A stretch of DNA of 64,000 bases, from positions 7,938,001 through 8,002,000 of the forward strand of contig CM097885.1 in the NCBI GenBank assembly GCA_044892525.1, in the 5' to 3' direction. This document shows, one piece after another, positions 28,098-48,624 of the stretch; the first letter of the stretch is position 1, and each line of letters begins with the position of its first letter. Made by a program: the position numbers and the translations under genes. The DNA comes from Schmidtea polychroa. Lineage: Eukaryota. Under the pieces are notes generated by a model that made no database searches, was not told the origin of the DNA, and saw only the letters and a list, made by a program, of their open reading frames with translations.

Positions 28098-28800
28098 GTT
28101 ATTTTAATATTTGTTTTAATAACTAAAAGAAATTCAATTCCTGCAATGCCTGCAACTTTTACATTGAATATCTAGTTAAATCGAGCATAATCTCTCATGA
28201 ATCATTACATCAGCTTGAAGGTATTGAGGCAGATTAAGCTGTGATAAACATTGATTACAATTTCTTATACAGTGAAACATCGACTTATACGTTATTAGGG
28301 AAACAAGCGTCTTAAAAACATTGATTCACTTAAAATGTCATCATTAATTTATATGGTATGTATTCCTAGCTAAGGTATCACTAATAACAACAGTGGTAGA
28401 CAGTGAGCTAATCCTAAACCACTGCGGTGATGACGACTACATGGAGCGAATTATGCTCCTAAGTCAAGGTTGCACTGTCTTTTAATCAGAACTTTGTTGA
28501 ATTGTTGATTGTTCAACTCCATTAAAGGTTTTTCTTGCAAAAGCTGCTTCGAAAAATTGTGTTAAATAAGTGAAGATTAAATGGTCAGTTATAAGATTTG
28601 ATTTCAAATGTTTGCATTTATTTTTATCTTATCTTTCTCTTATTTCTTTTGATTCAAAATTTAGCTTCAAAATAAGTTTCCTTTTGAGTTCTTCGTCTTT
28701 TTTGAAATAGAACCAGGTATTCATCATGATATATGTGTAATATTAATATTTCTTTTATATTTTCTTACTTCCATTATTGTGTTAATCATTCCCGCATTAG

Positions 28801-29034
28801 AACTTCATCGGGAAATTGTATCCGGAGAATATAACGGCTGGAGAACGATTAGTAAACTGAAATATTCTGTCAAATGGTTAGACAACGAAAACTTTGTCGA
28901 ATGTGAATCAAAATTGCCGAATTCTGACAAAGCCACCTCATCTTTGCATTACGATCGGTTGCGGCTGAATGTAATATTTGGACCACATTTCTCCAAACAA
29001 TACCCCAATGGCTCAGTTTTTCAAGCAGAAGAAA
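28801..29034 (+). CDS. Exon of nephrin-like Ig gene
   Basis: Starts after cattag|; 234 nt, phase 1-1. Reads LHREIVSGEYNGWRTISKL...DNENFVECES...LNVIFGPHF. Confidence 0.8.
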
Positions 29035-29085
29035 GTTTCAAATTAATGAAACATATTTATTAATATTGAAACCAGACTTTTTTAG

Positions 29086-29307
29086 ATTTAAACTTGACGA
29101 TCAAATTCAATGTTTTTGGGAATCCAAAAATCAACCGATACGTTTGGTTGAGGGGTCACAGACTGTTGGAATCAAATTCAAATTTTCATTTGTTTCAGAA
29201 CACATTAAGGATTTTCAATTTAACTCGGTACCACAGGGGTAACTATTCAATGGTCGCTCATAATGATATTGGCAAAACAGAGATTTTCTTCTTCATTGAT
29301 GTCAAAT
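29086..29307 (+). CDS. Exon of nephrin-like Ig gene (last exon before the Polinton-containing intron)
   Basis: Follows a 51-nt intron; phase 1-1, donor |gtaagg. Reads FGNPKINRYVW...LRIFNLTRYHRGNYSMVAHNDIG...IDVK. Confidence 0.85.
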
Positions 29308-31143
29308 GTAAGGACCGTAAATTATTATTTATTAATTTCACTATTAATGTTAATTCTCAACAATTTTAACCCTCTAATTGTACCAGAATATCATTTAAAT
29401 AAATTAAAGCAGTTCTTCATTATATTTTTGGGCTTTACTTAGGTATGATTTCGCAATTTCTTTATGATCATTACCGAATTTCTTCAGAGTAACATATTCT
29501 TGTTTTACTTTTGAATTCATTACCTTTATTACCTTCCTTGATTACGTCGTAGGACAAATGTTTCATATCACTTTGAACTGATGACTTGTAAAATGTTTGA
29601 CCAATCAATCCTTCGGAATCTCGGTAGCTGAATGTTTCCTTGATCATCTGCAATGATTTCAATATTTATGCAATTACTAATAAATCTATAAGTATAATCG
29701 TGTTGATTGAAGTTGGTTAGTGCCATTGATGACAACTAAACTGTGGAAATATATTGCAAAATAAGATGTCCTTTAATTTTTAATTATTTTTTAGTTAATC
29801 AACTCAAAGTTTGAAATGTTTACTGTGAAACAACTGTTAATATAATTTATAAAATTTAACAAGCCATAAATAGAAAATTCTTAAGAATATATTTCATTAA
29901 AAAATGAAAAATTAATTAATTTTCAAATATCATCAAAATTATAATTTTTAAAACCAAACGTAATTAAAATTAATTAAATTTAATAATTAACAAAATTCAA
30001 CTTATAATTAATTTTCTTTATTTTCAATTTAATGAAAAATTTTTTCCCTATTTAACGCAAAATATTTTCTTAATAAAAATAAATAACTTATTTTTAATCT
30101 CCAAATGTTAGAATTGACTTAAAAACCGAAATTTTATTATAATTTTATATTATCTTTAGTAATACAGAAATGCAAATTTGCAAGATTTGAATTTTATTAA
30201 AAATGATTTGTATTTGTTTTAAATATTATTATTGAAGGTTACCCGAACGGTAGTGCAACGCGGGAAATGTACCGGGCCTAAATTTATAATAAGTAAGGAG
30301 ATAGAAACAGTAGTGTGGTTATATACCCAACCAAAACAGCCCCCCCAACAAAAACATGCCTCCAAATCACTTAAGCTATTAGAAAAACAACCTAAAACTT
30401 ATACTTTTATAGTATTTTAACCCTATATTTTGAAAACAACCACCCTTAATGACTCTAACTGTTTTAATCTTTAAAGCCTCAAACTCAAAAGCTTCAAACT
30501 AAAAAGAGAATAGAAAAGAAAATGGCATTATGAAAAAGTTAGAGGGCTATTTGATCTTTATCAGATTATTGATTTTAAATTATATAAATTAAAAAATAAA
30601 TGAAAAATAGTAAAACTGCTCTGAGGGGACAGTGGTATTTTTTTTTTTTTCACTGTCCCCTCAACAGTTTTTTTTGATCCGGATCATTTTTTTTATTTAT
30701 CAACCTCTTTCGTTTATCGAATCTCTTCCAATATACAAGCTGGCCAGACTCATACATCAGAATCAATCCGATAATAGCAGCACACCTTATTATTCGCTTC
30801 TCGCTCGAATACGATTTCATCGGCGTTTTAAGTGTGCTGCTCGAAAGTACAAATGAATTCGAAAGCGAATTCGAAAGAGGTCCGAAAACAACTGAGAAAT
30901 AAATGTTCACATTAAAGAATCGATCCGGGGGTGTTCGAAAGACAGGTGGCGATAATTACCGGTTCGCCACCATCACCCGTTTCAATATTTTTTTTTTCAT
31001 ATTTATGTTTAAAAAATAATTAATTAATAAAAAAAAAAAATAAAATAAAATAAATAAAATAAAATATACAAGTACTTTATAAATATAAGATACCCACACT
31101 ATTTTCAATATTATTTTCAAATTTTTAATATTATTTTATGTTG

Positions 31144-31227
31144 AAAAAAAACTAACCTCAGATGTGATTTGAACCACTATCCATTTGAACCACTGTGCCA
31201 GTCTATTCCCACTGCGCCATCAAAGTT
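31144..31227 (-). ncRNA. Putative Pol III tRNA-like ncRNA unit, left TIR outer copy (type B)
   Basis: Minus strand reads AACTTTGA-TGGCGCAGTGG (A box)...AGTGGTTCAAAT twice (B boxes)...GAGGTTAG-T8. Confidence 0.6.
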
Positions 31228-31376
31228 TGAATTTTTGTCATTTTTTTAATTTTTAATTTATAAAAAAATAAAATAAAATAAAATAAATAAAATAAAATAT
31301 ACAAGTACTTTATAAATATAAGATACCCACACTATTTTCAATATTATTTTCAAATTTTTAATATTATTTTATGTTG

Positions 31377-31460
31377 AAAAAAAAACTAACCTCAGATGTG
31401 ATTTGAACCGCTAGCATTTTGAACCACTGTGTCAGTCTAGCCCACTGCGCCATCAAGGTT
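31377..31460 (-). ncRNA. Putative Pol III tRNA-like ncRNA unit, left TIR inner copy (type A)
   Basis: Minus strand reads AACCTTGA-TGGCGCAGTGG...GGTTCAAAAT...GGTTCAAATC...GAGGTTAG-T9. Confidence 0.6.
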
Positions 31461-31479
31461 TGGATTTTTTGTCATTTTT

Positions 31480-31701
31480 TTAAATAATCGATTCAAGTTC
31501 TTTTATTCTTTCCTGTAATTGTTTTATTTTATCTAATCTTTTCTCAGCTACTTCTACTGCATTCATGTAAAAATGTCGATACTTTTCATTCTCTACCACC
31601 AACTCTTTAATGTATTCTAATGGTTCTTCTTCTCTTCTTTTTATTCTCTTAAGTTTAACTTCATTCAATTCATTTCTCATTCTTTCAATAAAGTCAATCA
31701 T
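31480..31701 (-). CDS. Polinton small coiled-coil protein (73 aa), unknown function
   Basis: AAAATG start context, as in the other element genes; E/K/R-rich heptad pattern; divergent from the major capsid gene; stop codon at the TIR boundary. Confidence 0.6.
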   Translation of the reverse strand: MIDFIERMRNELNEVKLKRIKRREEEPLEYIKELVVENEKYRHFYMNAVEVAEKRLDKIKQLQERIKELESII

Positions 31702-31787
31702 TTTTATAAATTATTTTTTTATTGAATTCCCTTTTATTTTTATTTTTATTTTTCAACTTTTATTTTTATCAACTTTTATATATAAAA

Positions 31788-33080
31788 ATGAATAATATAA
31801 ATCTTAAAATTCAAGAAAAAAATAAATTAAATCTTGATTATAATAAAGAATTTACTTATGAAATTAAAAAAAATGATATTTTAAAAATCTCGCCAACTTC
31901 AGGATCTATTGCAAACTTAAATCGTAGGGGTGATATAGTTTTTCAATCTCTTCAAACATCAAACCCAATAGATATTTGTAATGCCAAATTATATTACAAA
32001 GTAGAATTAGAAATTGAAGCAAACAAAGATATAACCCTAGAAAATAATTTCTTTCCAAATTTATTCTCCAACATGAGATTAAAACTAGGATCATCAGAAA
32101 TTGAAACTGTTTTGCATCCGGGAGTATATTCTACAATGTTAAATTTTATTTTGACTGGTTGTGATTATAAAAACGAATATGGTGAATTAACAGGTTGGAT
32201 TCCTGATGTTAATAAAGGGGATTTAGATAAAGATGGTTTAGATGTAAACCATGGTTACCATAAAAGAGCTGAACTTTATAAATCTAAAAAATTTGAAGGT
32301 TATTTTGAATTAAAACACTTGTTTGGATTCCTTCAAAACTATAATCGTATACTTCATAATGTTTTTATAGAATTCATCTGTAATAGAGTAGAAGGTGATA
32401 AAAGATTGTTCTATGGAGCTGTAGATACAAAAGCTAAATTAAAATTATCAACACTTGAATTACATATACCTGAATGGACATTAAACCCACATTCTGAGAT
32501 TAAACTCCTTGAAAGATTAAATTCCAACAAGTCTATAAATGTAAATTATTTAAATAGAATCTGTAGTGAATTTAGTATGACAGAGGGTTCAACATATTCT
32601 ATAAAGGTAGCAAATTTAGCATACCGACCAAGATATATCTTGATTGGATTCAAAGAAGTAGATTCATCTTTCCAAAAAAATAACAATCTATTTATTCAAA
32701 AGATTGGAGATGATAATTTAAAAACAATCCAAATTCAATTAAATAGTTCTTATTATCCAATAAATAGAATGGAATTTAATATTGAAAATAATGAAAACAT
32801 ATTCCCATATCTAAATTATATTGAAACATGTTATGATTTCAAAGTTGAACCGCAATTAAGTTTAGAAGATTTCAAAAATTTATATTCTATATTTTGTATA
32901 AATGTATCAGACCAAGATGATCGATTAGCCATAAATTATGTTGATGTTACACTTCATGTAACAAAGGATTCTAATTTTAAAGCTAAAGTATATACATTAA
33001 TATTAGAAGAAAAGAAAATAGAAATGAAATTATATGGTGGAAAGATTTCAATTATTGAAAATGTTAGGGGAGATTCTTGA
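31788..33080 (+). CDS. Major capsid protein (double jelly-roll, Polinton PY/hexon-like), ~430 aa
   Basis: Start at AAAAATG (31788). Motifs NNFFPNLFSNMRLKLG..EIE, RPRYILIGF, IQLNSSYYP and FKNLYSIFCINVS; size and context fit. Confidence 0.85.
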   Translation: MNNINLKIQEKNKLNLDYNKEFTYEIKKNDILKISPTSGSIANLNRRGDIVFQSLQTSNPIDICNAKLYYKVELEIEANKDITLENNFFPNLFSNMRLKLGSSEIETVLHPGVYSTMLNFILTGCDYKNEYGELTGWIPDVNKGDLDKDGLDVNHGYHKRAELYKSKKFEGYFELKHLFGFLQNYNRILHNVFIEFICNRVEGDKRLFYGAVDTKAKLKLSTLELHIPEWTLNPHSEIKLLERLNSNKSINVNYLNRICSEFSMTEGSTYSIKVANLAYRPRYILIGFKEVDSSFQKNNNLFIQKIGDDNLKTIQIQLNSSYYPINRMEFNIENNENIFPYLNYIETCYDFKVEPQLSLEDFKNLYSIFCINVSDQDDRLAINYVDVTLHVTKDSNFKAKVYTLILEEKKIEMKLYGGKISIIENVRGDS

Positions 33081-33109
33081 TATAATCCCTGATATTTTAA
33101 CATTTTAAA

Positions 33110-34522
33110 ATGTCTTTAAATAAACCCTATTGGAGATGTGAAACTTGTAATTGTCAAGTTACAAGACATCATAAAGCAAGTCATCTTAAAACTAAAAAAC
33201 ATACAGTAGGTGACCTAATTCCACGAGCTGGAGGCGATTTGCAATCTTCAAAAACAACATCTTCAATATTAAAACCTTTTACTACAGAAAAATATCCAGG
33301 TGAAAGACATTTATTTAAACACAACTATACTGGACCAGGAACACGTCTAGATATTAGATTAGATGAAAATAATAATCCCAAACAAGGAGAAGAACCAATA
33401 AATAGAATTGATCAAGCAGCTTTAAAACATGACATTGCATACAATTCAACAAATCTTAGAGATAGACATGTTGCAGATGTGAATTTAATACATGATTTAA
33501 ATAGTATCCAAAATCCATCAACCCAAGAAAAGATTCAAAGAGCTCTAGTTAAATTAGCAATGAAAGATAAGATTTTCATAGGCTTAGGACACAGTCCGAT
33601 CACCATGGGTGCAAGACTTCCTAGGAAAGCAAAAGATGTTGCTTATAAAAAGATTATCGAACAAGCAGAGATTGAAAGATCCCTCGAGAGTACAGCCAAG
33701 ACTAGTTTACAAACCCCAACAGAATCAGAAATAAAATATGCAAAGGAATTACACCATGAATTTAGAAAAAATAAAAAATATTTAAACGTTCAAGTACATG
33801 AAAAAGATCAAACATGGTCTGCAGATTTAGTCTTTATGCCCAAATCATCAGACCCTGAAAAATATAAAATAATTTTAACTGTAATAGATTTATATACAAG
33901 ATTTGCTTTTGCAAGATGTTTAGAAAATAAAACAGGATATTCTATTACAGAAGCATTTGAAAATATATTTGAAGAAAATCAAAGAATCCCAAAATATTTA
34001 TGGTGTGATAAAGGAACAGAATTTTATAACAAAGTTTTTACAAAGTTTTTAAATGAAAATGATATTAAATTATATTCAACAGAAAACGAAGGAAAAGCAG
34101 TCGTAGTTGAAAGATTAAATAGAACATTAAAAAATAAAATGTGGAAATATTTTACTGCTATTGGAAAACAAAAATGGAACAATGAATTGTTACAAAAGAT
34201 TGTAAATGAATATAATAATGATGTACATAGTTCTATAAAATTAACACCTTTAAATGCTTCCATGAAGCCTGAAACCATTAAAGTGGTAAATATTGAAAAT
34301 GATGTTATTGAAAAACCAAAGTTTAAAATTGGTGACTGAGTAAGAATATTTAAATATAAAAATAAATTTGAAAAAGGATTCACAGCAAAATGGACAAATG
34401 AAATTTTTATTATAAATAAAATAAATTATACAACTCCAATAACATATAGCATCATTGATTTAAATAATGAAAAAATATTAGGTAGATTTTATAATAATGA
34501 GTTACAGAAAACAGATTTTTAA
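33110..34522 (+). CDS. ZnF - parvovirus-VP1u-like PLA2 - retroviral-type (RVE) integrase fusion, with in-frame TGA at 34337-34339
   Basis: ZnF CETC..H..TKKH; PLA2 NYTGPGT...NRIDQAALKHDIAY; DDE triad WSADL/WCDKGTEF/VERLNRTLK. After the TGA the frame continues VRIFK...FEKGF...WTNEIF...PITY...GRFYNNELQK to TAA at 34522. Confidence 0.9.
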
Positions 34523-34533
34523 GTCGACAAGCC

Positions 34534-35340
34534 CTAAAACAAACTTTTCCATATTTCAGCTTCTTCTCTATCCAAATAAATATAATTATATTTTTCTTTC
34601 CAATGATTATCAACAAACATATCAAACATATTCTTATCAGGTTCAACATTTGAAAATAAATCATTATAAATCATATTCTTATCACGGCGATCTAATTTAA
34701 AAAATATAAAACAATTGGAATTATTTCTTATTGAATTTTTATCTAAAGCATAATATGTTTGAGATATATAAATAACATTACAATTATTATGTCGACCTCG
34801 TGTAAAGTAACTCTTTTGAATCTCTTGATTTTTCATATTAACAACATCATCAAATATAACTAGATTCTTTTTATCTTTAGGAAGTAAGTCACAATGTAAA
34901 ACATCTTCAGGTTTATTAGAGAATAAAACTTGAATTGCCTCCTGCCCTTCTTCACAAATATAATCATTTTTATTACTAATATCTGATTCTAAAATCTTTT
35001 CCTTATACCAATCAACCATATCACAAGGTTGAAAAACTTCTTCAGGACACCTATGTTGATTTTTAAAAATATCAATTATTGCTTTTTTAGTTAATTTATT
35101 TTCAAATCCACATTTCAAAAGTTGTAATTCTGGTTGATTTATGGTTGTAGAATAAAAGATTAAATTATTATAATCTAAAAAATCATCTTCAAGTAACATT
35201 CTCAAAACAAGTACATTCTTTCCACATCCAGAAGAACCAACAATTAATAATCTAAAATTATCAGGAAATACTTTATTATTAAATTTACTCTTATGTCTAT
35301 TTAAAATTGGTTTCCAAATTATTGGACTTCGTACATCCAT
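34534..35340 (-). CDS. FtsK/A32-like DNA packaging ATPase (~268 aa)
   Basis: Walker A GSSGCGK(N), Walker B LVIFDD, and FTRGRHNNCNVIYISQ; AAAATG start at 35340. Confidence 0.9.
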   Translation of the reverse strand: MDVRSPIIWKPILNRHKSKFNNKVFPDNFRLLIVGSSGCGKNVLVLRMLLEDDFLDYNNLIFYSTTINQPELQLLKCGFENKLTKKAIIDIFKNQHRCPEEVFQPCDMVDWYKEKILESDISNKNDYICEEGQEAIQVLFSNKPEDVLHCDLLPKDKKNLVIFDDVVNMKNQEIQKSYFTRGRHNNCNVIYISQTYYALDKNSIRNNSNCFIFFKLDRRDKNMIYNDLFSNVEPDKNMFDMFVDNHWKEKYNYIYLDREEAEIWKSLF

Positions 35341-35355
35341 TTTGTTTATTATAAA

Positions 35356-35934
35356 ATGACAACTGAAGAATCTTTGCAAGAATTAATAAATTCAAATAAA
35401 AATAAATCAGTAGTAATTGATGGTAAAAAATATTTTATTGGAAAACATGTAAAAGAACAAGTTAGAGCGAAGCTCCACGAAGCTAAAGAAGGTGGCATTC
35501 TTCCATTAGCTGCTTTAATACCTGCAATCATTGCTGGTTTATCAGGTGCTGCTGGAATAGCTGGAGGAATTGCAACTACAGTTCAAAAAGCTAAAGAATC
35601 TCAAAAGACAGACCTAGAAAAAGAAAAACTACAAACTGAAATCGATTCAATGAAGAAGGTAGGGCAAGCTAAAGGGGGAGTGTCCGTTGGAAAGGGTCTC
35701 TATCTTAATCCATATGAGGGGAGTCGGCAAAAGTCTCAGGGCAAAGGTTTCTATCTTGATCCTTATAAAGGTAGAGGTTTAAATGATTTTTTAAAAAATC
35801 AAATTTCTACATCTGAATCTTTATCTTCAAAAGATAAAGAAGATTTAAAACAAATATGTAAATCTTTAAAGAATGGATGCCTTTGTAAAACTAAAAATGG
35901 TAAAGGATTATACTTGAAGCCCTTCGAACTATGA
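35356..35934 (+). CDS. Putative virion core/membrane-active protein with an adenovirus pX-like hydrophobic segment
   Basis: GGILPLAALIPAIIAGLSGAAGIAGGIA resembles the adenovirus pX C-terminus (GGILPLLIPLIAAAIGA); three GKG(L/F)YL.P repeats. Confidence 0.7.
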   Translation: MTTEESLQELINSNKNKSVVIDGKKYFIGKHVKEQVRAKLHEAKEGGILPLAALIPAIIAGLSGAAGIAGGIATTVQKAKESQKTDLEKEKLQTEIDSMKKVGQAKGGVSVGKGLYLNPYEGSRQKSQGKGFYLDPYKGRGLNDFLKNQISTSESLSSKDKEDLKQICKSLKNGCLCKTKNGKGLYLKPFEL

Positions 35935-35956
35935 TACCATTTTTGATACCATTAAA

Positions 35957-36813
35957 ATGGTATATGAAGAAAGATTAGCACTTTTAAAAAAATTACAATC
36001 AGAACAAGATAAATATAATAAAAAAGATACAACTCAACATGCTGAATCTATAATATTAAATGAGGTAATAACACAACAACAGGGGCCAACAATTAAAGCT
36101 ATAAAAGAGTTGGAAGATTTCAATGAGCAAGCAAAATTTAAAGAGTTAGAAGATAAAAAACAAAAAATAAAAGAACTAGAGTGGCAGGATAAAGAAAAGG
36201 AATCCAGTGAAAACCATCCTGAAAGAAATCAAAGAAAACGCAGAAGAATTTCTAATGTGGAAGAAGAAGAAATGTTTTTAAAAACAAAAGCTCTTAAAGT
36301 TGATCCTAAAATTAGAGATGATTTACCTCCTTCAATTAGACCCACATTTAATACTAATACTGAAGGATATCAAATAATAACAATTAATAAACAAAACTTT
36401 ACTTTATATTCAAATTCAGAAAATAAATCACGTATTCATTCACAAAATGTTTATAATAATGAATATTTAGACTTTGAATTTACAGATGATTTTTATAGAT
36501 TACTTTGTGGATATTCTTCAGATGATGTTGAAGAAATTAAAAAATATTTAAATTTAATAAGATTAATAAGAGCTAGTTCTAAAGCAAAATATATTCAAGA
36601 TTTAAAGAATTATTTAAATAAAAATGAAAGGGATTAATTAGTGAAGGTGGTAAACCAAATCCCATCAATCTTTTTATTGAATTAAGAAAACTATTAGCTG
36701 CAAGGAAAGCAGGACATAATAATTTAGATTCTGATATTTTAAAGATTTCTAAAGATTTGTTAAAACAAGGAATAATTTCAAAAGATAAATTTAATAAGTA
36801 TACGAAGTTATAA
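35957..36813 (+). CDS. Polinton conserved hypothetical protein, frameshifted near 36626
   Basis: The 226-aa ORF stops at 36637. The -1 frame (36628-36813, no ATG) reads KGL...NPINLFIELRKLLAARKAGHNN...DLLKQGII, a C-terminal motif I recall from Polinton proteins. Confidence 0.65.
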
Positions 36814-36835
36814 ATACGAAGTTTCAAAATACAAA

Positions 36836-37300
36836 ATGACTCCTTCAATATTAGATTTTTTAAAAACATTTGGAATAAATGCAAAAACAAATTTTGATTT
36901 AAAAGATTATGCAAATTATTTAAATTTAAAAATTAAAATATTAATGAATGATGAATTATCAAGTCTGGAGAGTCCCCTGAATATAATAATCAATTATCAA
37001 AATTCAAATGAAAAAGGATCTCATTGGGTTTGTATATATAAGAAATCTATCTACTTTGATTCTTTTGGGATTAAACCTACTAAAGAAGTTGAAGATTATC
37101 TCTTGAGGGGTTCTCCGATTGATTCCCCAAATGGTTATACTTTTAACTCTTTACAAGTTCAACCTTTGAATACTAAAATATGTGGTATTTTAAGTTTATA
37201 TGTTTTGTATAGATTGAATAAGGGAGAGGGAAAGGGGCATACGCAGGATTTTGAATCTATAATTCAAGAAATTTATAATGATCTAGAATCTCTACTATAA
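36836..37300 (+). CDS. Adenain-like (clan CE) maturation cysteine protease
   Basis: GSHWV, YFDSFG and QVQ.....CG supply the His-Asp-Gln-Cys catalytic set. Confidence 0.92.
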   Translation: MTPSILDFLKTFGINAKTNFDLKDYANYLNLKIKILMNDELSSLESPLNIIINYQNSNEKGSHWVCIYKKSIYFDSFGIKPTKEVEDYLLRGSPIDSPNGYTFNSLQVQPLNTKICGILSLYVLYRLNKGEGKGHTQDFESIIQEIYNDLESLL

Positions 37301-37348
37301 GGATTTTTACTATAAGAATTTTTACTATATGAATTTACTACTAAAGAA

Positions 37349-38113
37349 ATGGAGCTTCACAACCCTCCGGAAGATAATTTAAAAAAAATGGTAAACATAA
37401 TGTCAGATAAATATTCAAGAACTTTATCTATAAATTCAAAAGAATCAGAGTTTACTATAAACTTTCAAGATTCAATTAAATTAGATCAAAATTTAAATTA
37501 TGAATTGGGGCTATTATGGTTTTGTGCTTATAATACTATTTTTAATATAACTAAAGATAATAATAAATTTACTATTCAAACTCGTGATGGGCATAAACCA
37601 GAAATTATAACAATAGAACCTGGGGCATATGAGATAAAAGATTTAAATGATATACTTTCTAAAAAAACAAATGAAGGTATTAAAATTAAAATGGATATAC
37701 CAACTTCAAAATGTGTAATGACTTTGAAGAATATAAAAATTAGTTTTTTAGATAATTGTTTCTTTCACACAGTTTTAGGATTTAAACCTATGGATATAAC
37801 AATAAAAGAAGATAAAATAATAACATCAGAACATATTATAAAAATAATAAATACAAACACAATAAATATTCATTGTGATTGTATAACAGGTTCTTATAAT
37901 AATGGTAAACAAACAAATGTTTTATATTCCTTTCCCTCAAACACAGTTCCTATGGGATATAAAATAGTTGAAAGAATGAATCCTCCAAATTATTTACCTT
38001 TATGTAGAAAATATATAATGGATATTAATTTTAAAATTCTTAATCAAGAAGGAGAATTGATTGATTTTAATGGAGAAGAGATTTCAATGTATTTACATTT
38101 GAAACAGGTTTGA
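37349..38113 (+). CDS. Minor capsid protein (single jelly-roll penton, Polinton PX)
   Basis: FNIT..NNKF, PGAYEI.DLN, IHCDCITGSY.NG, GYKIVE...P.YLP, NQEGELIDFNGE. The true start could be a downstream Met. Confidence 0.85.
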   Translation: MELHNPPEDNLKKMVNIMSDKYSRTLSINSKESEFTINFQDSIKLDQNLNYELGLLWFCAYNTIFNITKDNNKFTIQTRDGHKPEIITIEPGAYEIKDLNDILSKKTNEGIKIKMDIPTSKCVMTLKNIKISFLDNCFFHTVLGFKPMDITIKEDKIITSEHIIKIINTNTINIHCDCITGSYNNGKQTNVLYSFPSNTVPMGYKIVERMNPPNYLPLCRKYIMDINFKILNQEGELIDFNGEEISMYLHLKQV

Positions 38114-38137
38114 AGATTCATTTTAAATTATTAATAA

Positions 38138-39148
38138 ATGAGTTCTTATATTCCATGTAATAGAGGTGGTGGAACAATAAAAACAGGGTTTAATACAGAA
38201 GAAATATTAACTTTAACAGAAAATAAATATATTAATGAAAGAGGTGATTCAATGAAGGGTGATTTAATTTTAAATGGACACAAGATAAAAGAATTATCTT
38301 TTCCAACTGATGAAGCTGATGCGGTTAATAAAAAATATGTAGATGGTGTTAAAAAATATACTGATTTAACAACAACAAGAATTGAAAGTTCATTAACAAC
38401 AAAAATTGATTCAATGGAATCAAAGCTTAATAATATCGAACAACGATTTAATGATAAATTTGACAAGTTACAAAGTCTGTTAACTGAACAAGTTGTAAAG
38501 TTAAATACTGCTATATTAAATTCTAAAGATAAACAAATTATGAATACTAAATTTAATACAATATATAAAATAATAAATGAGATGATTACATCATTTAATA
38601 AAAGAATTTCAAATTTAGAGTCTCATACAACACACATTAACACCACACATAGTATTAGAAAAAGAGCTGCTGAATTAGAACAGAATAAAACATTATTACC
38701 CCATACATATAAACATTTTATAGAACCAATTTTAATAACAACAAACAGTAAAGAATGGGGTGTTTTTATGGTTGTAAAAATTATTGATCCTTATTTCTTT
38801 TTGTTTGATGATGATAATGAAAGAATGAAATGGTTTGTGAAATGTGATTATAATAGTAAGCTTGAAAAGGGTGATGTTATAATGACTAGTTATGATTTAC
38901 CACACGGAGATTGGTATGTTAATACTCATTCACATGGACTACATAAAGTTAAAAGTAAGAATATTCATTTTTCTAGTTCACTTGTACAATATATAGATTT
39001 AATATTTTATGAAAAAAAGGTTGATGTTGATGAAGTTCGTAAAGCATTGAGAGAATTGTATAAAGATATCCTCTCAACAAGAGTTTCTTTTGATATCCGA
39101 GTATTGGTGCCAGATGGTGCTCAGAAGAATAAAGTCTTATTTTTTTAA
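38138..39148 (+). CDS. Putative fibre/spike-like protein (336 aa)
   Basis: KYINERGDSMKGDLILNGHKI...PTDEADAVNKKYVD tail-fibre-type motif, long coiled coil, then a distinct beta-rich C-terminal domain; directly follows the penton gene. Confidence 0.55.
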   Translation: MSSYIPCNRGGGTIKTGFNTEEILTLTENKYINERGDSMKGDLILNGHKIKELSFPTDEADAVNKKYVDGVKKYTDLTTTRIESSLTTKIDSMESKLNNIEQRFNDKFDKLQSLLTEQVVKLNTAILNSKDKQIMNTKFNTIYKIINEMITSFNKRISNLESHTTHINTTHSIRKRAAELEQNKTLLPHTYKHFIEPILITTNSKEWGVFMVVKIIDPYFFLFDDDNERMKWFVKCDYNSKLEKGDVIMTSYDLPHGDWYVNTHSHGLHKVKSKNIHFSSSLVQYIDLIFYEKKVDVDEVRKALRELYKDILSTRVSFDIRVLVPDGAQKNKVLFF

Positions 39149-39156
39149 TTATTAAA

Positions 39157-39753
39157 ATGGAAGAAGTAAGAGAAGAAAAAATTTACCCAGAATTGAGATC
39201 ATCAGGATATTATTCTTCCAAGGCCTCGGCTCCCACAGAACTTGAAATTATGAGAGTAAAAGAATTTAAATCAGAAACCTTACATTTACAAGATTTATTA
39301 AAGCATTATAAAAAAATTAAAAATAGATGGAATAAAGGGAATACAGTTTTAAAAGTTATAGGTTATTCTTTAGGATTTGCATCTGCAATATTAACAGTTA
39401 TTTTACCCATAACTTTACCAGTTGTTACTCTTGCACCTGTAATACTTGGAAGTATTTCTGTGGCTGATGGTTTCTTAACTGAAATAGTTTCATTATCTTA
39501 TACTTCTAAAAAGAAAAGTTTATATAGAGAAGTTTGTTTATCAATAGAATTAGGAATCTCTAAATTATTTTTATTTCAATTAAAAGCTTTGGAAGATGGA
39601 ATCCTGACAGACGAAGAAATAATGAAATCAAATCAAATAATACAAGATATAAAGAATGAGGTTATAAGATTAAAAAGGGAGGGCATGGTGGCTAATGTTA
39701 TAAGTAATAAAAAAACATCTCGAGAAAAATGGTTAAAGAATTCTTACTTATAA
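39157..39753 (+). CDS. Polinton membrane protein (198 aa)
   Basis: N-terminal IYPEL..ASAP; central hydrophobic hairpin VIGYSLGFASAILTVILPITLPVVTLAPVILGSI; KALEDGILTDEE. Confidence 0.7.
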   Translation: MEEVREEKIYPELRSSGYYSSKASAPTELEIMRVKEFKSETLHLQDLLKHYKKIKNRWNKGNTVLKVIGYSLGFASAILTVILPITLPVVTLAPVILGSISVADGFLTEIVSLSYTSKKKSLYREVCLSIELGISKLFLFQLKALEDGILTDEEIMKSNQIIQDIKNEVIRLKREGMVANVISNKKTSREKWLKNSYL

Positions 39754-39843
39754 AATGGGTGTATTTTTAAAAAAGTAGATCAGGTTGCTATAGTTAAATT
39801 AATTGTCGACATTTTATTATTAAAAAATTAAATATCGTTGGTT

Positions 39844-42800
39844 TCAGTTATGGTTGAAAGCCAACCTATGAATCATTAATTTATGATCTTTAAATTCTTT
39901 ATCACTTAGACCTTTTATATATTCAGGATCAGTATTAAAATATTTAAGTTCTAAACATATAGGATTAAAAACTTGAGAATATAAAGGTTTCTCGATTTCT
40001 CTCTCGGGATAAATAATTTCAACATTATAAATATCAAGATCAGTAATCTTTGTATCATATAACTTATTCAACTTTTCTAGATTTTTTATTATAGGGATTA
40101 AATTATTTCCAATAGGTAGAGCTGTCTTTAAATCACTTAGTATGAATCTCTTATCATCATAATTTGATAATGATACTTTTTGAGATTCTATCAAGTGAAT
40201 ATCATGGTTTTCACTTTTAAGTTGATGTATTTCATCAATTTTATCTTTATGATTTGGATTCAATGTATCTATATAATCTTGATGAGAAAGATTCTTTGCC
40301 ACCACTCTCTGTATTCCTTTACATCTGTTATCCTTTACAGGTTTTTCTTCTTTAGGAAATATAGGATATCTATGTGTAATGGTTTCTTCTGTTTCTGGAG
40401 TTTTAAATATAAATGATCTAGTTATAAATTCAGGGTTTCTAAATGTTTCGTATGAATATTGTTTAGCACGAATAAATATTCCATTTTCTATAGGAGTAAA
40501 AGGTTTTTCATCTTTAAACGAAAATAGTTCTCCAGATGAATTTATTAAATTTGAAAGTATAGGATTTTCTTTCATATCTTTTTGTAAATCATGAGTTCTT
40601 ATTGTTAAAAACATTGAATCTGTATCCATTGCATGCATTGATATATTTGCTCCGTATATAGGTTGTAAGATGTTATAATATGTTTCATACATTTGTAATT
40701 TTGAAAGTTCTAAAATTGTAAACCCTATAAATATTGGTTTGTTATATGTTTTCTCATAATTTTTTAATTCTACTGCAGTAAGATTTTCAGAAAATACTTG
40801 TGCGTTTTTAAATGTAGGCTTTCCTAGCATGCGATTATAACGCTTAATATCTTTGGTAGTATTTGTTAGGAGTTCAATATGAGTATATTTATCAACATTC
40901 TCCATTGTTTTCCCAAAGACTGAATTGTTTAAAATTTTATAATTATTATCTTTAAAAAGATTACCTTCTCTTTTTGCAATGTTTCGGCACCTAATGTTCT
41001 CCTCGATAAAAGCTTTCATGAATGGAGCTTGTTTAAATCTTATGACACTATGAACTTTTTTTAATATCATTCCTCGTGAAAGATAAAATTGGAGGAGTCT
41101 ATAGTGACAAAGATAAAACCTTCGATCTGTTTGATCACAAAGAAGTTTCATTGTTGGAGGTTTATCTTGTGAGATTTGCCATTCAGAAAGTTCGTTGATA
41201 TCAATCTTTCTTCTTATGGGAGCTAAAGGAAAATATCTTGTTCCTGATTTTATATCATCTGGATAGTCGAGGTCGCATTCTATAAAGTAACCTATTGGAG
41301 AATCTTTCGATGTTGAAAGTATTTCTTTCATAAGGTCATCTGTTGGGTTCTCTATTTCAGTGAAATCACCCATTGGTAAAAATTGAGTCATAATTCCTGA
41401 ATATAAAGCTGTTGCATCTATATAAAGTATAAATATAGGATTTTTCATTGTTTCTAATAATTCTTTTAATTCCTCATTGTTAATTTTCATATATGGATCA
41501 TCAGGGTGTTTAGATAGTCTTCGGCTAGTAGTTATTGCATTTCTAGCTTTTATTTCTCTATTCCCCATTACTGAAGAGACTCCTCCTCTAATGTTTGTTT
41601 TAATTTGGTTAAACATATCGAGGTTAGTTAAAAGATCTATAATTTTATCACCTTCTTCTATATTTGAAGTCCAAATGGTATATAACATAGTATCCCAAGC
41701 TAAAGAGGGTGCAGTTATATAATTATAAGGTTTAAGAACAAAAGATTTTGTAAATTCTTCAAAGCAATCTGCTAGAATATAAACATCCAAGGATAAATAC
41801 ATACTTGTATATTCTCCTAAAGTTTTACACTTGAATAATTCCCACATTTTATTTGCTCGAGAATATTCTTGATTTGTAATATGATTTTTTTGAAGTTGTG
41901 AATAGAAATCTTCTTGGCTAGGAAGACTTGTTTCATTATATCTTTCAAACGAGTCAACATAGTCATAAGGATATATTCCTTTTGCTAAACATGTAGGATA
42001 TTCTTCTAGAGGAATATTATTTTTTTCCAAGAATTCTCGAGTGATTTTAAAATTTTCTGGTTTCATTGTTTTTGCTACTGCATCTAAAGACATTTGGAGA
42101 AAGTTTAACGAGTCTATAAATTTTAATTTTCCATATTCAATTGATTTATATTTTTCCTTTGTTAAGCCGATAACTTTGAAAGAGTTTTTAGCATTTTCTG
42201 CGAGGTGTTTAATAAATAGATGTATGTCATATCCAAAAAGATTATGAAATATAGCAGGTATAAATTTAGGAGTATGGCAATTAAGATTGCAATTTTTATG
42301 AGCTGCTCCTCGATAATTATTTTCCTTTATTAAATGATCATGATCTATAACTTTTTCATCAGGAAGAATATTCTGTTTACACATCCAACAGTTGGAAGTA
42401 TTTTCATATTCTTGTTGTTGTTGATTAGAAATATTTTGAGGATAGTTTGTTTTTAATATTTTAAATATTTCATGTTCTAGATCATTTATATTTTTAGTAA
42501 AATGATTCAAGACTTCTTCAGGGGTACCTCCTAGAATTGAATATTCTCTAGATTCTATGAGTTCAGGATAATTACTTTTAAATAATAATTTATAAGCAGA
42601 TGGTAATTGTTTAGTTTTTTTAACACTATTAGGTTTATTTCTTTTTCTTAGAAAGGCTTTCATCCTCTCTGGTTTCATCTTCTCTCCTGAGGAGTTCCAG
42701 GAATCCATGAGTTTATTTTTTTCTATTATTTTTAAATATTGTTTAACCAAATCTTGTTTACGATTTATAGATTCAAAGTCCCCATAAAGCACTCCTACTG

Positions 42801-44163
42801 TTTGTAGTAAATTTGAAAAGTTTTTAAAATACATCTTGGGATTATTAGGCATTTTAATTAAAGCTGGATCATCTTTTTCACAAAATCTTGTATGTTTAAT
42901 CATAGAGTTTTTAGTTGTTGAATAATGAAGACATCTTTTACATGTTCCTCCTCCACTAGTTGGATTCTCTGGAGATGTAAAAGCTTGAAAGTTTTTTATT
43001 AAAACATAATGTTGATTATTTTCTTGTTCCAAGATTAAAAGATATATCTCGTTGTCCTGTGCTCCGTTATCCTTGGTTCCACTATCTGAAATATAAATTG
43101 GAATAATTTCTTTCCCTATAACATGTTCATAAATATTAAGTTTAAGATTATTTAATTTTTCAAATTCTGGAATGTCTTCTAGTTTCATTGGGTGTTTGAA
43201 TCCTTTGGGAAATATTAATTCATTTTCATATTGTTTGTATTTTGAAACTCTTTGGGGATTTGTTGCTTGAGGATGTAAATGTGCAAGTATTGACCAGATG
43301 AAACATTTGTTATCATTATTCTGTACATTTATAACATTTTTAGATTTAAAGGGTGTAGGAATATAAGATTTAGGATTGGGTGGTAATCCTCTCCAATAAT
43401 CAATCACTAAAGTTTGGAAAGAGTTGAATACTAAGTTTGAATCTCCTAATTCATTTTCTACTTCCTCTTGTTTTGCTTCTGCTGCTTTAATTATTTCTTT
43501 GATGGTTTTATCAAATCCTTTAATTGAAAATAAATATTTAAAAGGTATTCCAATTTCAACATCTAAGGGTGTTGTCTTTTCTTCTGCTCCTCGCCAGTAT
43601 TTTGCTTTGATTATAATTTTATATTTTATAACATTATACCTTGTCGGTTTATAATTTTTTAAAGCTTCAGTGAAAGAATTTTTAATATTTTTTTTATTTT
43701 TATTTATATATTCTCCAGGAGTTGCAGGCCCATTAATTTTTAATTGAAATTCATCTATATGATTAAAATTATACCAGTTATATTTTTCTCTTTCAACATG
43801 ATCAGGTTCTCCTTCTGAATGACATTCCTCATCGTCAGAATTTTGTTTTTTATTTTTACATTCTTTTATATGTTCTAAATAATAGAAATTTAGTTTTGTT
43901 GAAAAGTTACAATGAGGACATGTAAATATTTCTCTATTTTTCCCGATACAATTTTCAAAATGTTTATTATATCCAGAATGTAGAAATCTTCCTTTACATT
44001 TAAGACAAAGTTTTGAATTTGTATCATTAAGATTATTTTCTTTTAATAAATGAGCTTTCGATTTTAAGTGAGAAATTAATCCAGTTTTATTTTTAAAAAC
44101 TTTATTGCAAATATTACAATTCATTTTTAGAAAAAAATTTTTTATTGGATACCCTGTTTTCAT
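39844..44163 (-). CDS. polB: Protein-primed family B DNA polymerase (1439 aa) with N-terminal Zn fingers, OTU-like domain and EndoVII-like insert
   Basis: Exonuclease motifs YGDFES, FHNLFGYD, KGIYPYDY and YLSLDV; polymerase motifs YIDATALY, KILNNSVFGK, MDTDS and KGI; OTU-like DNKCF...HY; insert CWMC...DHDH...RGAAH..CN. ORF uninterrupted. Confidence 0.95.
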   Translation of the reverse strand: MKTGYPIKNFFLKMNCNICNKVFKNKTGLISHLKSKAHLLKENNLNDTNSKLCLKCKGRFLHSGYNKHFENCIGKNREIFTCPHCNFSTKLNFYYLEHIKECKNKKQNSDDEECHSEGEPDHVEREKYNWYNFNHIDEFQLKINGPATPGEYINKNKKNIKNSFTEALKNYKPTRYNVIKYKIIIKAKYWRGAEEKTTPLDVEIGIPFKYLFSIKGFDKTIKEIIKAAEAKQEEVENELGDSNLVFNSFQTLVIDYWRGLPPNPKSYIPTPFKSKNVINVQNNDNKCFIWSILAHLHPQATNPQRVSKYKQYENELIFPKGFKHPMKLEDIPEFEKLNNLKLNIYEHVIGKEIIPIYISDSGTKDNGAQDNEIYLLILEQENNQHYVLIKNFQAFTSPENPTSGGGTCKRCLHYSTTKNSMIKHTRFCEKDDPALIKMPNNPKMYFKNFSNLLQTVGVLYGDFESINRKQDLVKQYLKIIEKNKLMDSWNSSGEKMKPERMKAFLRKRNKPNSVKKTKQLPSAYKLLFKSNYPELIESREYSILGGTPEEVLNHFTKNINDLEHEIFKILKTNYPQNISNQQQQEYENTSNCWMCKQNILPDEKVIDHDHLIKENNYRGAAHKNCNLNCHTPKFIPAIFHNLFGYDIHLFIKHLAENAKNSFKVIGLTKEKYKSIEYGKLKFIDSLNFLQMSLDAVAKTMKPENFKITREFLEKNNIPLEEYPTCLAKGIYPYDYVDSFERYNETSLPSQEDFYSQLQKNHITNQEYSRANKMWELFKCKTLGEYTSMYLSLDVYILADCFEEFTKSFVLKPYNYITAPSLAWDTMLYTIWTSNIEEGDKIIDLLTNLDMFNQIKTNIRGGVSSVMGNREIKARNAITTSRRLSKHPDDPYMKINNEELKELLETMKNPIFILYIDATALYSGIMTQFLPMGDFTEIENPTDDLMKEILSTSKDSPIGYFIECDLDYPDDIKSGTRYFPLAPIRRKIDINELSEWQISQDKPPTMKLLCDQTDRRFYLCHYRLLQFYLSRGMILKKVHSVIRFKQAPFMKAFIEENIRCRNIAKREGNLFKDNNYKILNNSVFGKTMENVDKYTHIELLTNTTKDIKRYNRMLGKPTFKNAQVFSENLTAVELKNYEKTYNKPIFIGFTILELSKLQMYETYYNILQPIYGANISMHAMDTDSMFLTIRTHDLQKDMKENPILSNLINSSGELFSFKDEKPFTPIENGIFIRAKQYSYETFRNPEFITRSFIFKTPETEETITHRYPIFPKEEKPVKDNRCKGIQRVVAKNLSHQDYIDTLNPNHKDKIDEIHQLKSENHDIHLIESQKVSLSNYDDKRFILSDLKTALPIGNNLIPIIKNLEKLNKLYDTKITDLDIYNVEIIYPEREIEKPLYSQVFNPICLELKYFNTDPEYIKGLSDKEFKDHKLMIHRLAFNHN

Positions 44164-44230
44164 TTTATTTTTTAAGATTTATATTATTCATTTTTTATAA
44201 TAAAAATTTAAAAAAATGACAAAAAATCCA

Positions 44231-44314
44231 AACTTTGATGGCGCAGTGGGCTAGACTGACACAGTGGTTCAAAATGCTAGCGGTTCAAATCACATCTGAG
44301 GTTAGTTTTTTTTT
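44231..44314 (+). ncRNA. Putative Pol III tRNA-like ncRNA unit, right TIR inner copy (type A)
   Basis: A box TGGCGCAGTGG at 44239-44249; B box GGTTCAAATC at 44282-44291; T9 at 44306-44314; 5' and 3' ends complementary. Confidence 0.6.
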
Positions 44315-44463
44315 CAACATAAAATAATATTAAAAATTTGAAAATAATATTGAAAATAGTGTGGGTATCTTATATTTATAAAGTACTTGTATATTTTATT
44401 TTATTTATTTTATTTTATTTTATTTTTTTATAAATTAAAAATTAAAAAAATGACAAAAATTCA

Positions 44464-44547
44464 AACTTTGATGGCGCAGTGGGAATAGACTGGCACAGTG
44501 GTTCAAATGGATAGTGGTTCAAATCACATCTGAGGTTAGTTTTTTTT
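44464..44547 (+). ncRNA. Putative Pol III tRNA-like ncRNA unit, right TIR outer copy (type B)
   Basis: A box at 44472-44482; B box at 44516-44525; T8 at 44540-44547; 233 bp downstream of the type A copy. Confidence 0.6.
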
Positions 44548-45489
44548 CAACATAAAATAATATTAAAAATTTGAAAATAATATTGAAAATAGTGTGGGTA
44601 TCTTATATTTATAAAGTACTTGTATATTTTATTTTATTTATTTTATTTTATTTTTTTTTTTTATTAATTAATTATTTTTTAAACATAAATATGAAAAACA
44701 AATATTGAAACGGGTGATGGTGGCGAACCGGTAATTATCGCCACCTGTCTTTCGAACACCCCCGGATCGATTCTTTAATGTGCACATTTATTTCTCAGTT
44801 GTTTTCGGACCTCTTTCGGATTCGCTTTCGAATTCATTTGTACTTTCGAGCAGCACACTTAAAACGCCGATGAAATCGTATTCGAGCGAGAAGCGAATAA
44901 TAAGGTGTGCTGCTATTATCGGATTGATTCTGATGTATGAGTCTGGCCAGCTTGTATATTGGAAGAGATTCGATAAACGAAAGAGGTTGATAAATAAAAA
45001 AAATGATCCGGATCAAAAAAAACTGTTGAGGGGACAGTGAAAAAAAAAAAAAATACCACTGTCCCCTCAGAGCAGTTTTACTATTTTTCATTTATTTTTT
45101 AATTTATATAATTTAAAATCAATAATCTGATAAAGATCAAATAGCCCTCTAACTTTTTCATAATGCCATTTTCTTTTCTATTCTCTTTTTAGTTTGAAGC
45201 TTTTGAGTTTGAGGCTTTAAAGATTAAAACAGTTAGAGTCATTAAGGGTGGTTGTTTTCAAAATATAGGGTTAAAATACTATAAAAGTATAAGTTTTAGG
45301 TTGTTTTTCTAATAGCTTAAGTGATTTGGAGGCATGTTTTTGTTGGGGGGCTGTTTTGGTTGGGTATATAACCACACTACTAGAAACCGAGACAGATTTC
45401 AAGGTTTCTTTTTCAAAATATTTTATTTAATTAATGTAAATTATCCAGAGGTTGATAAAGATATGATTTATTTATAGCCAAATATTAAT

Positions 45490-45712: not shown

Positions 45713-45779
45713 TTAATCATTATTTATATTACTTAAAAAGTAATTAAAAAGTAATATAACAAAGTAATATTATTGTGAA

Positions 45780-47296
45780 GCTGCTTACGAAAACCTCTTC
45801 AACATTGACACATGCAAGAAAGTTAGCCGCATGTCACCAAACACCATCGAAATGAAGATCAACAAAGTATGGAAACCCTTTGCTGTGGGAATTGGCCTCA
45901 ATAACAGATTAACCAAAAGCTTTGTTACAAAGAATTCCGATCTTCCAAACTTCTACTACCTTATAAGAACTCATAAAGACGGTCCTGTTATCAAAATTAG
46001 ACCAACAAGTAAAAAAAATGACTCCTTTCAAAAATATTAAAACTATTATTAGAAACTGTACCACATCAGCTGCAGAGCAGCAACTGCCTCATGTCAAGAA
46101 TAAATAAAAAAACTACTCACAGAGAATTCAAATACCCCTTCAGTCTTGATGTTGTATCACTATACACATCCATCGAACCAAAAGATGCTATTTAAATGTT
46201 TATAAAAGAAATGTAGAGAAAGCAACTTGTGATTAAAAGAAATGAATACCGCGAATATCATTAAACCTCTTACTGTTATCCTCGAGAAGACATATTTTAC
46301 CTTTGAATAAAATGTCTATGAACAAGTAAAAGGTCTTCCTATGGGGTCTAGTCTATCAGGATTGTCAGCAATCATTTTTATGGATAACCTCGAACGAAAA
46401 ACACTGGGGACCATACAATCCATTGGTTTCTACGCGGATATGTAGATATGATATCTTTATCTCGACAAAAACCAGAAAAGAAGCGGAGGAAATATTTCAT
46501 GCATTCAATGCGGCTCATTGAGATATTAAGTTTGAAATCGAATATCCGGAAGAAGATGAATTAATCAATCTACTGGATTTAAAAATTAAAATAGAATTAG
46601 ATACTCCAGCATTCGGGTTTTACAGAAAATCAACTCGCAAAAAAATATTTATGCACCAAAAATCAGCGCTTCAATACTTAAAGAAAGTACACGTTATAAA
46701 AAGCCAGAAACAAAGGATACCCAATCGATGTACTGAAGAAAACCAAAACTATAATCAACAAATAAATATCTAGGGAAATAACACAAAAAATGATAAAGAA
46801 ATATTTTTATCTGAATATCCTATTCATAAATTACATACTCGACTTCAAGATCCTAAAAGAACTGAAACGCACTGGCCTTCCAATTCGTATACCACATAAA
46901 TCTTGGACATTGAGAAAAGCTCTTGAAAAGAACACAAAAAAACAATTGCAAACGGAAAACTTTCAGACACCGAAAGATCTGTGCTTTCGAAAAAACATTG
47001 TCTATTGCATCACGTGCGATGTATAAAAGGAAATATACATTGGAAGTCCGCTCAGGACCTTGTACCAAAGAGTTAAAGAACATCTAGATCCTGGTGAAAA
47101 ATCCTCGGTATACAGATATCTCCAACAAAGTCAACCAAGGAATGAAAAAAAAATAATTTAATCAAAATCTTAGCGGCTAAGACTTAGCCAATGGAAACAT
47201 CACAAAAGATTTCAGATTTAAGGAAGCAATTCTCATAATAAACAGACGGCCAACTATCAACACTAAAGAAGAAATCAATGAAATCATCAGTTTTTA
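45780..47296 (+). mobile_element. Degenerate Penelope-like retroelement (RT + GIY-YIG)
   Basis: LPNFYYLIRTHK...IRP; FSLDVVSLYTSI; YEQVKGLPMGSSLS; LLDLKI; FYRKST; NIVYCITC...YIG...LYQRVKEH; many stops and frameshifts. Confidence 0.85.
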
Positions 47297-48305: not shown

Positions 48306-48372
<67 letters not shown>

Positions 48373-48589: not shown

Positions 48590-48624
48590 TGGGATTTGCA
48601 CTGGGTATCACAAAGCTTGTACTG

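Follow-up and report, generated by a model that had tools for sequence, protein, structure and literature searches.

A young but defective Polinton of the PLA2-integrase type in an intron of a multi-immunoglobulin gene of Schmidtea polychroa

Is the 15-kb virus-like element found in an intron of a Schmidtea polychroa gene a complete Polinton, still equipped to move and to form virions, or a copy that is no longer autonomous? In this work, we address this question in a window of 64,000 nucleotides (contig CM097885.1 of assembly GCA_044892525.1, positions 7,938,001 to 8,002,000 of the forward strand; all positions below count from the first letter of this window). The element is a real and young but defective member of a known Polinton type. 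More specifically, with a probability of about 0.8, we regard it as a young integrated copy, no longer autonomous, of a Polinton that resembles Alpha adintoviruses and belongs to the PLA2-integrase type, that is, one whose integrase carries the lipase domain in a fusion.

The element spans 30309-45381 (15,073 bp), with AGTAGT at 30309 and ACTACT finishing at 45381, which is the first of the two terminal patterns of Polintons, (AGT)2//(ACT)2 or (AG)3//(CT)3. Its edges are made up of the following features.

30303-30308 (no strand): left copy of the target-site duplication (TSD), AGAAAC, 6 bp, perfect
30309-31484 (+): left terminal inverted repeat (TIR), about 1,176 bp, with the AGTAGT end
44206-45381 (-), start approximate: right TIR, about 1,176 bp, with the ACTACT end
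45382-45387 (no strand): right copy of the TSD, AGAAAC, 6 bp, perfect

The chance of finding the TSD hexamer at a fixed place is 3e-4, and the two TIRs are distinguished by four substitutions and three single-base indels, seven differences in all. The TIRs, the 6-bp TSD and the total length all fall within the ranges given for Polintons (TIRs of 100-1,500 bp, TSD of 5-8 bp, length of 13-25 kb; PMC10748475; here and below, published sources are represented by parts of their text or supplements). A sequence-only reading of this locus had described a perfect 6-bp TSD, AGTAGT termini and very few TIR differences, all of which we found again. Its identification of a Polinton/adintovirus is supported by the termini, the TSD, the TIRs and the replication and morphogenesis genes, and its claim of a young insertion is likewise supported. 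The age of the insertion cannot be read from the TIR differences, since some of them segregate among family copies: the right-TIR states at 30871 and 30340 are common among other copies, and we discarded TIR divergence as a clock. Within each TIR there is also a duplication of 233-nt period (31015-31384 and 44307-44676), with 137-nt copies 97% alike that begin at 31015 and 31248 in the left TIR, as well as a GC hairpin with a homopolymer loop, located near 30615-30665 on the left. Folding of the left end was not stronger than that of shuffled sequences (z -1.5).

The inner region comprises 12,721 bases, 12,329 of them coding, with intergenic gaps of only 8-90 nt. Its intronless open reading frames (ORFs) are listed below.

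31480-31701 (-): 73-aa coiled-coil ORF, weak Pfam/PHROG matches only
31788-33080 (+): major capsid protein (MCP), double jelly roll, 430 aa, open (PF21738, E=4.6e-26)
33110-34522 (+): PLA2 fused to an rve integrase, with an in-frame TGA at 34337-34339 that breaks the gene (PF08398, E=3.7e-9; PF00665, E=6.8e-12)
34534-35340 (-): A32/FtsK-type packaging ATPase, 268 aa, open (PF04665, E=1e-8)
35356-35934 (+): pX-like core protein, 192 aa (Adeno_PX, E=0.04, weak)
35957-36813 (+): conserved split gene, broken by a change of frame near 36625-36640
36836-37300 (+): adenain-type cysteine protease of 154 aa with the catalytic His/Asp/Gln/Cys motifs
37349-38113 (+): penton or minor capsid protein, open (AlphaFold model with a Foldseek match to the mavirus penton)
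38138-39148 (+): fibre-like protein, with a tail-fibre repeat, then a coiled-coil-like stretch, then a C-terminal part
39157-39753 (+): 198-aa ORF with a hydrophobic segment (33% identical to its relative in locus L004, E=2e-21)
39844-44163 (-): protein-primed PolB (pPolB), 1,439 aa, open, with exonuclease and polymerase motifs (PF03175, E=8e-13)

Ten of these ORFs have at least 150 aa, as claimed before, to which the 73-aa ORF must be added; all 11 start at AAATG, compared with 107 of all 517 ATGs in the element. A double jelly roll MCP, a penton, an A32 ATPase and a cysteine protease, as in other Polintons, are all present. The complete set described earlier, covering replication, integration and full morphogenesis, is thus found in kind, but it is not intact, as two of the genes are broken.

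The first lesion lies in the integrase, where the TGA interrupts the conserved KFKIGD-x-VRI stretch 60 conserved codons before the normal end at 34522. Relatives 92-96% identical read through this position to the same C-terminus, and of the 90 homologues long enough to include the KFKIGD motif, 80 extend at least 45 aa past it. We also compared positions 28700-44200 with contigs from 4 of 24 runs (X1, X5, X8 and X15 are among the codes used); a letter other than that of the window is found at the stop site in 95% of the X1 depth, in 99.6% of the X5 depth and in the single X8 contig there. The second lesion splits a conserved gene, presumably PZ/Adintoc-like: the ORF ends at 36637 (35957-36637), and its conserved C-terminal tail (36628-36813) continues in another frame and has no ATG. 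Both close relatives (P0156 and P0157) are single proteins with the tail, of 263 and 238 aa, and 13 of 25 matches to the tail are proteins of 220-283 aa that carry it near the C-terminus. No usable match to the split gene was found in the ESM Atlas. Because two genes are defective, the copy cannot be an autonomous intact provirus, and the integrase stop and the break near 36630 set it apart from Mavericks called intact, in which the core ORFs are all uninterrupted. Without its C-terminal domain the truncated integrase most likely leaves the copy in need of integrase in trans. The copy would be in early neutral decay, moving only when integrase is so supplied.

Some observations weigh against this account of the lesions. 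Among the indels listed (12 of 35) none lies near 36630, so this break may be common to a sub-lineage instead of private to the copy, and at 36825 and 40122 the letter of the window has nearly zero depth in X1, which also fits an assembly error. One may then suppose that the copy is intact in the animal and that both breaks are errors of assembly or consensus, all the more as the frame break falls in A/G-rich sequence, where indel errors are expected to be common, and as those two sites are nearly private. We consider this improbable: the integrase stop is a substitution, the leftover depth at 34337 is 62,524, enough room for the allele, and no other ORF is interrupted in about 10 kb. At 33787, moreover, the leftover X1 depth of 259 is about that of the single-copy flank (245), and some private letters thus look real. 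It is very improbable, in turn, that the breaks are programmed recoding, by stop readthrough and frameshift, in a functional copy. The coding sequence beyond both breaks is well conserved, recoding has been proposed for the adintovirus penton and hexon-adenain (PMC11071296), and the lack of a listed indel near 36630 would fit as well; against this, the stop is missing from 95-99.6% of the family depth, neither protein is interrupted in close relatives, and no canonical slippery heptamer leads into the tail frame, as judged by eye. A viral contig misjoined into the intron is hardly credible. By a 31-nt rule no listed contig bridges the left junction, and the comparison ended at 44200; on the other side stand the canonical ends, the perfect TSD (p=3e-4) and record 2 of X1 (29073-30332), which crosses the left edge unbranched and with 0 differences, reaching 24 nt into the TIR. 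No empty-site fork was listed at the left junction in X1. In X5 the flank belongs to another haplotype, with 10 substitutions plus 28 gap letters in roughly 1 kb, and no listed piece reaches across the junction.

The contigs also bear on the family to which the copy belongs. In X1, the depth summed over gene bins was 0.63-1.6 million, compared with 148 and 245 for the unique-flank contigs; in X5, from a second study, it was 0.13-0.33 million, compared with 43 and 25. A single X5 contig, identical to 37074-37198, has a depth of 11,321, about 260 times that of the flank. In contigs of two studies, therefore, the element is hundreds to thousands of times deeper than its unique flank, and the family looks abundant, with probably hundreds and possibly thousands of copies. 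The variation among copies was classified for the variants listed (40 of 503 substitutions and 12 of 35 indels), a fraction that limits what follows. Among them, 22 of 35 coding sites are synonymous, against 0.18-0.27 expected (p=0.0003 against 0.33), as are 12 of 17 in the MCP, against the same expectation (p=0.002 against 0.33). Where the copy differs from at least 95% of the X1 depth, all five changes are non-synonymous or nonsense, compared with 9 of 31 among the rest (Fisher p=0.005). Shared variants that are synonymous and private ones that are disruptive are what one would see if the family is under selection while this copy decays. The family would thus be very abundant in its host and still selected for capsid function. 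That it was recently active, as the sequence-only reading proposed, is supported indirectly by the very high depth and the mostly synonymous shared variants. Virion formation, also proposed there, appears to be favoured by the conservation of the capsid and by the PLA2-integrase fusion.

Depth summed over overlapping contigs is no copy number, and it would be raised by free viral DNA; X1 may, besides, come from the very sample that was assembled. These points weaken the estimate of abundance, and they leave room for a high depth produced mainly by free replicating viral DNA or by gene-less satellites instead of many integrated coding copies, which summed depth cannot tell apart. A relative of 15.6 kb ending in TIRs in IMG/VR (locus L083) also points in that direction. 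We nevertheless think it unlikely, as the depth is high over every gene and not over the TIRs alone, and as up to 102 variant contigs per site, of 90-99% identity and from two studies, fit a diverse integrated population better. Element contigs in X8 (depth 31-290) were rejected as evidence of expression, since DNA carry-over is possible and the nature of X8 as RNA is a guess. In X15, from a second organism, pieces of the element 98-100% identical were found at 37169-37661, 41437-41554 and 42927-43089; they could come from a close relative or from horizontal transfer, a lead only, in a highly fragmented run (longest record 912) without cover of the host exon.

We return to the young, non-autonomous Polinton copy and its integrase. 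This protein begins with a Zn-finger-like N-terminus (by eye), followed by a parvovirus-type PLA2 and the rve domain, all fused in frame. The residues of the DDE triad are kept in 120 of 120 (D239), 120 of 120 (D300) and 117 of 118 (E334) homologues, and the catalytic H, D, Y and D of the PLA2 in 116-117 of 117. PLA2 and integrase occur together in 105 of the 120 homologues listed, although the query favours fusions. The linker glycine G158 is kept in 119 of 119 homologues and the upstream G41 in 88 of 94; a GG or GxG motif lies upstream of the PLA2 in 57 of 67 cases and downstream of it in 105 of 115, compared with 27 of 1,728 windows of the integrase core. An intact PLA2 domain flanked in this way, as the element has, suggests packaging into the virion. 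GG|X and GX|G are cleaved by the protease of the mavirus virophage, whose virions contain integrase together with a hydrolase in cleaved form (PMC6048507); Polinton lipases have been proposed to be packaged for entry (PMC4642659). There are two points against cleavage at these motifs in our element: the strict adenovirus pattern, (M/I/L)xGG or (M/I/L)xGxG, is absent from the PLA2-integrase protein, and the downstream GxG also ends stand-alone PLA2X domains in the published supplement (PMC11071296), so that it may be structural and no cut site.

The fusion is not a novelty, as it is already annotated in the supplement of Buck et al. 2024 (PMC11071296); we did not meet it in the main text, as far as covered, of PMC8502044, PMC3671162, PMC5803895, PMC4642659 and PMC11296320. 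By the established biology of Polintons (PMC10748475, PMC8097293), pPolB replicates the linear genome from its TIRs by protein priming, the ATPase encloses it in MCP/penton capsids, and the integrase joins the DNA to the host genome with a 6-bp TSD. Polinton proteases mature these capsids, as the adenain-type enzyme would do here. In the virion-delivery model that we propose, the integrase would enter the particle as part of the PLA2-integrase fusion. Cleavage at GG/GxG by the protease could there free a membrane-breaching lipase and the integrase, and new copies may arise by reinfection. A broader reading joins these elements: hundreds to thousands of recently amplified Polinton copies would have spread in a retrovirus-like manner, by reinfection through particles; the integrase would travel in the virion as a PLA2-integrase polyprotein released by adenain; and in some relatives the fusion would be made through a gag-pol-like -1 frameshift, setting the lipase-to-integrase ratio. 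Taken as a whole, this broader reading is tentative and, in our opinion, doubtful.

The frameshift is suggested by related metagenomic loci. With the integrase as query, 80 such loci were found, mostly on short contigs, and they carry the ATPase in 34 cases, the protease in 25, the penton in 20, the MCP in 16 and pPolB in 12. Both PLA2 and integrase are matched in 51 of 85 loci, from which 11 without anchors and one with non-adjacent matches were removed. In the remaining 39, the junction is in frame in 24, at -1 in 10 and at +1 in five. An in-phase slippery heptamer is present in eight of the 10 loci at -1, where L019 and L020 are apparently duplicates, compared with six of the 24 loci in frame. 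In six loci, all at -1, the junction is the sole break. Three loci, L007, L036 and L070, combine an in-phase A AAA AAC with frames otherwise clean and no Met before the integrase start motif. In L070 a hairpin begins 7 nt downstream of the heptamer. The downstream fold was matched by 0 of 200 shuffles in L070 and by 6 of 200 in L007, being stronger in both, and by 131 of 200 in L036, where it is not stronger. L025 has an A-run, the offset of L082 looks like a lesion, and the integrase of L083 has an ATG of its own. From these sequences, a gag-pol-like -1 frameshift from PLA2 into integrase is possible at the L007, L036 and L070 junctions; slippage in A-runs is a strong rival explanation for the -1 offsets. 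A pattern scan for further junctions of the frameshift type gave six matches, none from a Polinton. In the literature searched, which included 32 of the 59 places with 'PLA2' in the PMC11071296 supplement, no PLA2-to-integrase frameshift was found; -1 frameshifts have been proposed there for the penton and for hexon-adenain.

Two of the related loci deserve mention on their own. L083 (1-15597, IMG/VR) has the same core genes between perfect 123-bp terminal TIRs, and in it the PLA2 (174 aa) and the integrase (300 aa) are encoded by separate ORFs that overlap. In L002, a 444-aa ORF matches the protease over residues 16-169 and the pX-like protein over residues 181-386 in one frame, which recalls the 'PLA2X-Adenain' entries of the Buck 2024 supplement.

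Other genes of the element were assigned with unequal strength. The MCP is 52% identical over 414 aa to its relative in L013; as a query against viral contigs it gave no relatives from two pattern matches. No significant match to PDB sequences was obtained with the MCP, the penton profile, the protease or PolB. The protease also lacks a significant match in Pfam, and it was assigned from its motifs, kept across 18 related ORFs, and from its relatives. No library match by sequence was found for the penton gene. Its AlphaFold model, built from an alignment of 43 sequences, reached a pLDDT (the predicted value of the local distance difference test) of 86.5, compared with 37 for a single-sequence model, and it matched the mavirus penton (Foldseek E=1.6e-10; VIA Z 13.6, root-mean-square deviation 8.7, 227 aligned), the next-best structural matches being other viral pentons. 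The fibre-like label given earlier applies to residues of about 35-95 (PHROG 2710 tail fibre, E=1.7e-5) and not to the remainder of the protein. The 198-aa ORF, matched in the Atlas by hypothetical proteins only, may resemble PW/GasderminX.

The Walker A/B and RGRH motifs of the ATPase agree with those of its relatives. Its head-to-head partner is the pX-like gene, and the divergent gap between the two has only 15 bp (35341-35355), so that each promoter must sit inside the coding sequence of the other gene. ATAAAC occurs upstream of one of the 11 genes, and no Pfam match to the TATA-binding protein (PF00352) was found in the 11 ORFs. At the N-terminus of pPolB there are C2H2 fingers, and its motif A departs at one conserved position from all six relatives covering it. 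An EndoVII/HNH-like Zn-binding insert lies at about 42280-42420 (-), with a PF02945 match below cut-off (E=0.002), and its motif occurs in related loci too. An OTU-like domain at the PolB N-terminus gave no sequence match in Pfam or PDB; published detection uses profile or structure.

The closest published counterparts are Adinto6405 and Adinto15303, whose entries are annotated 'PLA2-integrase' in supplementary file 2 of the Buck et al. 2024 preprint (PMC11071296). Judged by eye from partial entries, their starts resemble the PLA2 region of our element, while a protein whose end directly precedes the Adinto6405 entry is similar there to the C-terminus of our penton; the present copy differs from them in being an integrated insertion with two lesions. 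With Alpha (Mayetiola-class) adintoviruses (PMC8502044) it shares a pfam03175-type PolB, rve, an FtsK-type ATPase, adenain, hexon, penton and a parvovirus-type PLA2. It thus has both the PolB class and the PLA2-class virion gene of that group, the latter in PLA2-integrase form. Unlike those viruses, which have a single PLA2X gene, its PLA2 is fused to the integrase and the pX half stands alone: the GG-xLP and GKGLYLxPY motifs of the pX-like protein agree by eye with the C-terminal half of the PLA2X entries in the Buck 2024 supplement, and the protein may be the 'X' half of the published gene. No integrase chromodomain, a feature of adintoviruses in the wording of Buck 2024, was detected by Pfam, and the read-through integrase and its closest relatives end about 60 aa after KFKIGD, without the chromo extension of P0113 and P0121.

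Vertebrate Mavericks share with the element the (AGT)2//(ACT)2 ends and the 6-bp TSD, and their size (12.7-24.6 kb) and TIR length (46-1,447 bp) include those found here; they differ in gene order, and this copy falls outside their 'intact' definition; degradation is usual there too, in 96% of the loci (PMC8097293). If depth reflects copies, the family looks comparable to or above the highest vertebrate count, the 287 of the axolotl (PMC8097293). With mavirus (Born et al. 2018, PMC6048507) the element shares the penton fold, the cysteine protease, the rve integrase and pPolB; mavirus depends on a protist giant virus, and its lipase-like protein is an alpha/beta hydrolase encoded by a separate gene; for the present element no such helper is known. 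Two precedents come from other work: Mavericks are reported to have expanded in the genome of an animal, Dugesia (bioRxiv 10.64898/2025.12.11.693146), and in Schmidtea Polintons are reported to be silenced by PIWI (PMC8532177). In the parts covered, the preprints 10.1101/2024.03.18.585575 and 10.64898/2026.10.13.758929 have little bearing on the element.

The host gene is transcribed in the same direction as the window is read, and the element lies between two of its exons.

29086-29307 (+): host exon with an Ig domain (Pfam Ig_3, E=3.9e-6) and a phase-1 donor, GTAAGG
53570-53770 (+), end approximate: next host exon, with acceptor TTTTAG and an in-frame join

The exons join in frame at 29307/53570, as claimed before, reading ...FFIDVKYAPVIVG across a GT-AG intron of 24,262 bp. 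Such a join is expected for any intronic insertion and is uninformative on splicing in carriers. The element would be spliced out together with the 24-kb intron. It has 55 sense-strand AATAAA motifs in 15.1 kb, compared with 27 in the remaining 9.2 kb of the intron; since the densities are similar, nothing points to a particular risk for the host transcript. Ig-family matches were found in five of eight putative host exon frames, two of them to C2-set_2 above cut-off and one with only E=0.047. The host is thus a multi-Ig gene with C2-set domains, and to that extent the earlier nephrin-like label is plausible. The gene seems to extend past the window. An X8 contig of 4,854 nt matches the exon at 28799-29034 exactly, which suggests a spliced host transcript. 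A host intron of 51 bp follows at 29035-29085, its 5' boundary coinciding with the end of the X8 contig piece.

The host sequence is AT-rich (about 26% GC) and holds other repeats. The intron of the insertion also contains a MITE-like (miniature inverted-repeat transposable element) sequence at 47837-48631, whose inverted arms of 211 bp (96%) enclose an (ATT)n core. Decayed retroelement-like frames, presumably Penelope-like, lie at 45768-47100, 10881-11138 and 62343-63476 and have no Pfam match; only 380 bp separate one of them from the right TIR. About 900 bp are tandemly duplicated at approximately 61707-63479 (97%). A remnant of an rve integrase (20897-21079, E=9e-5) probably belongs to a long terminal repeat element and has no tblastn similarity to the Polinton proteins. 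An actin pseudogene-like fragment (24464-24718; Pfam Actin, E=2.3e-9) lies within the span of the host gene.

The insertion in itself is ordinary, as Polintons with such genes, such ends and a PLA2-integrase fusion are on record and the copy is defective. The interest lies in the family, that is, in its abundance and in two testable mechanistic leads. Virions of animal Mavericks were unobserved as of Barreat and Katzourakis 2021 (PMC8097293), and they are well sought in a host where a family of this kind is very abundant and its capsid gene appears to be under purifying selection. The fusion predicts that integrase will be found in the particles, cut at the Gly motifs. If the joint reading of reinfection and frameshift is true, this host would offer a tractable system for catching the virions of an animal Polinton.

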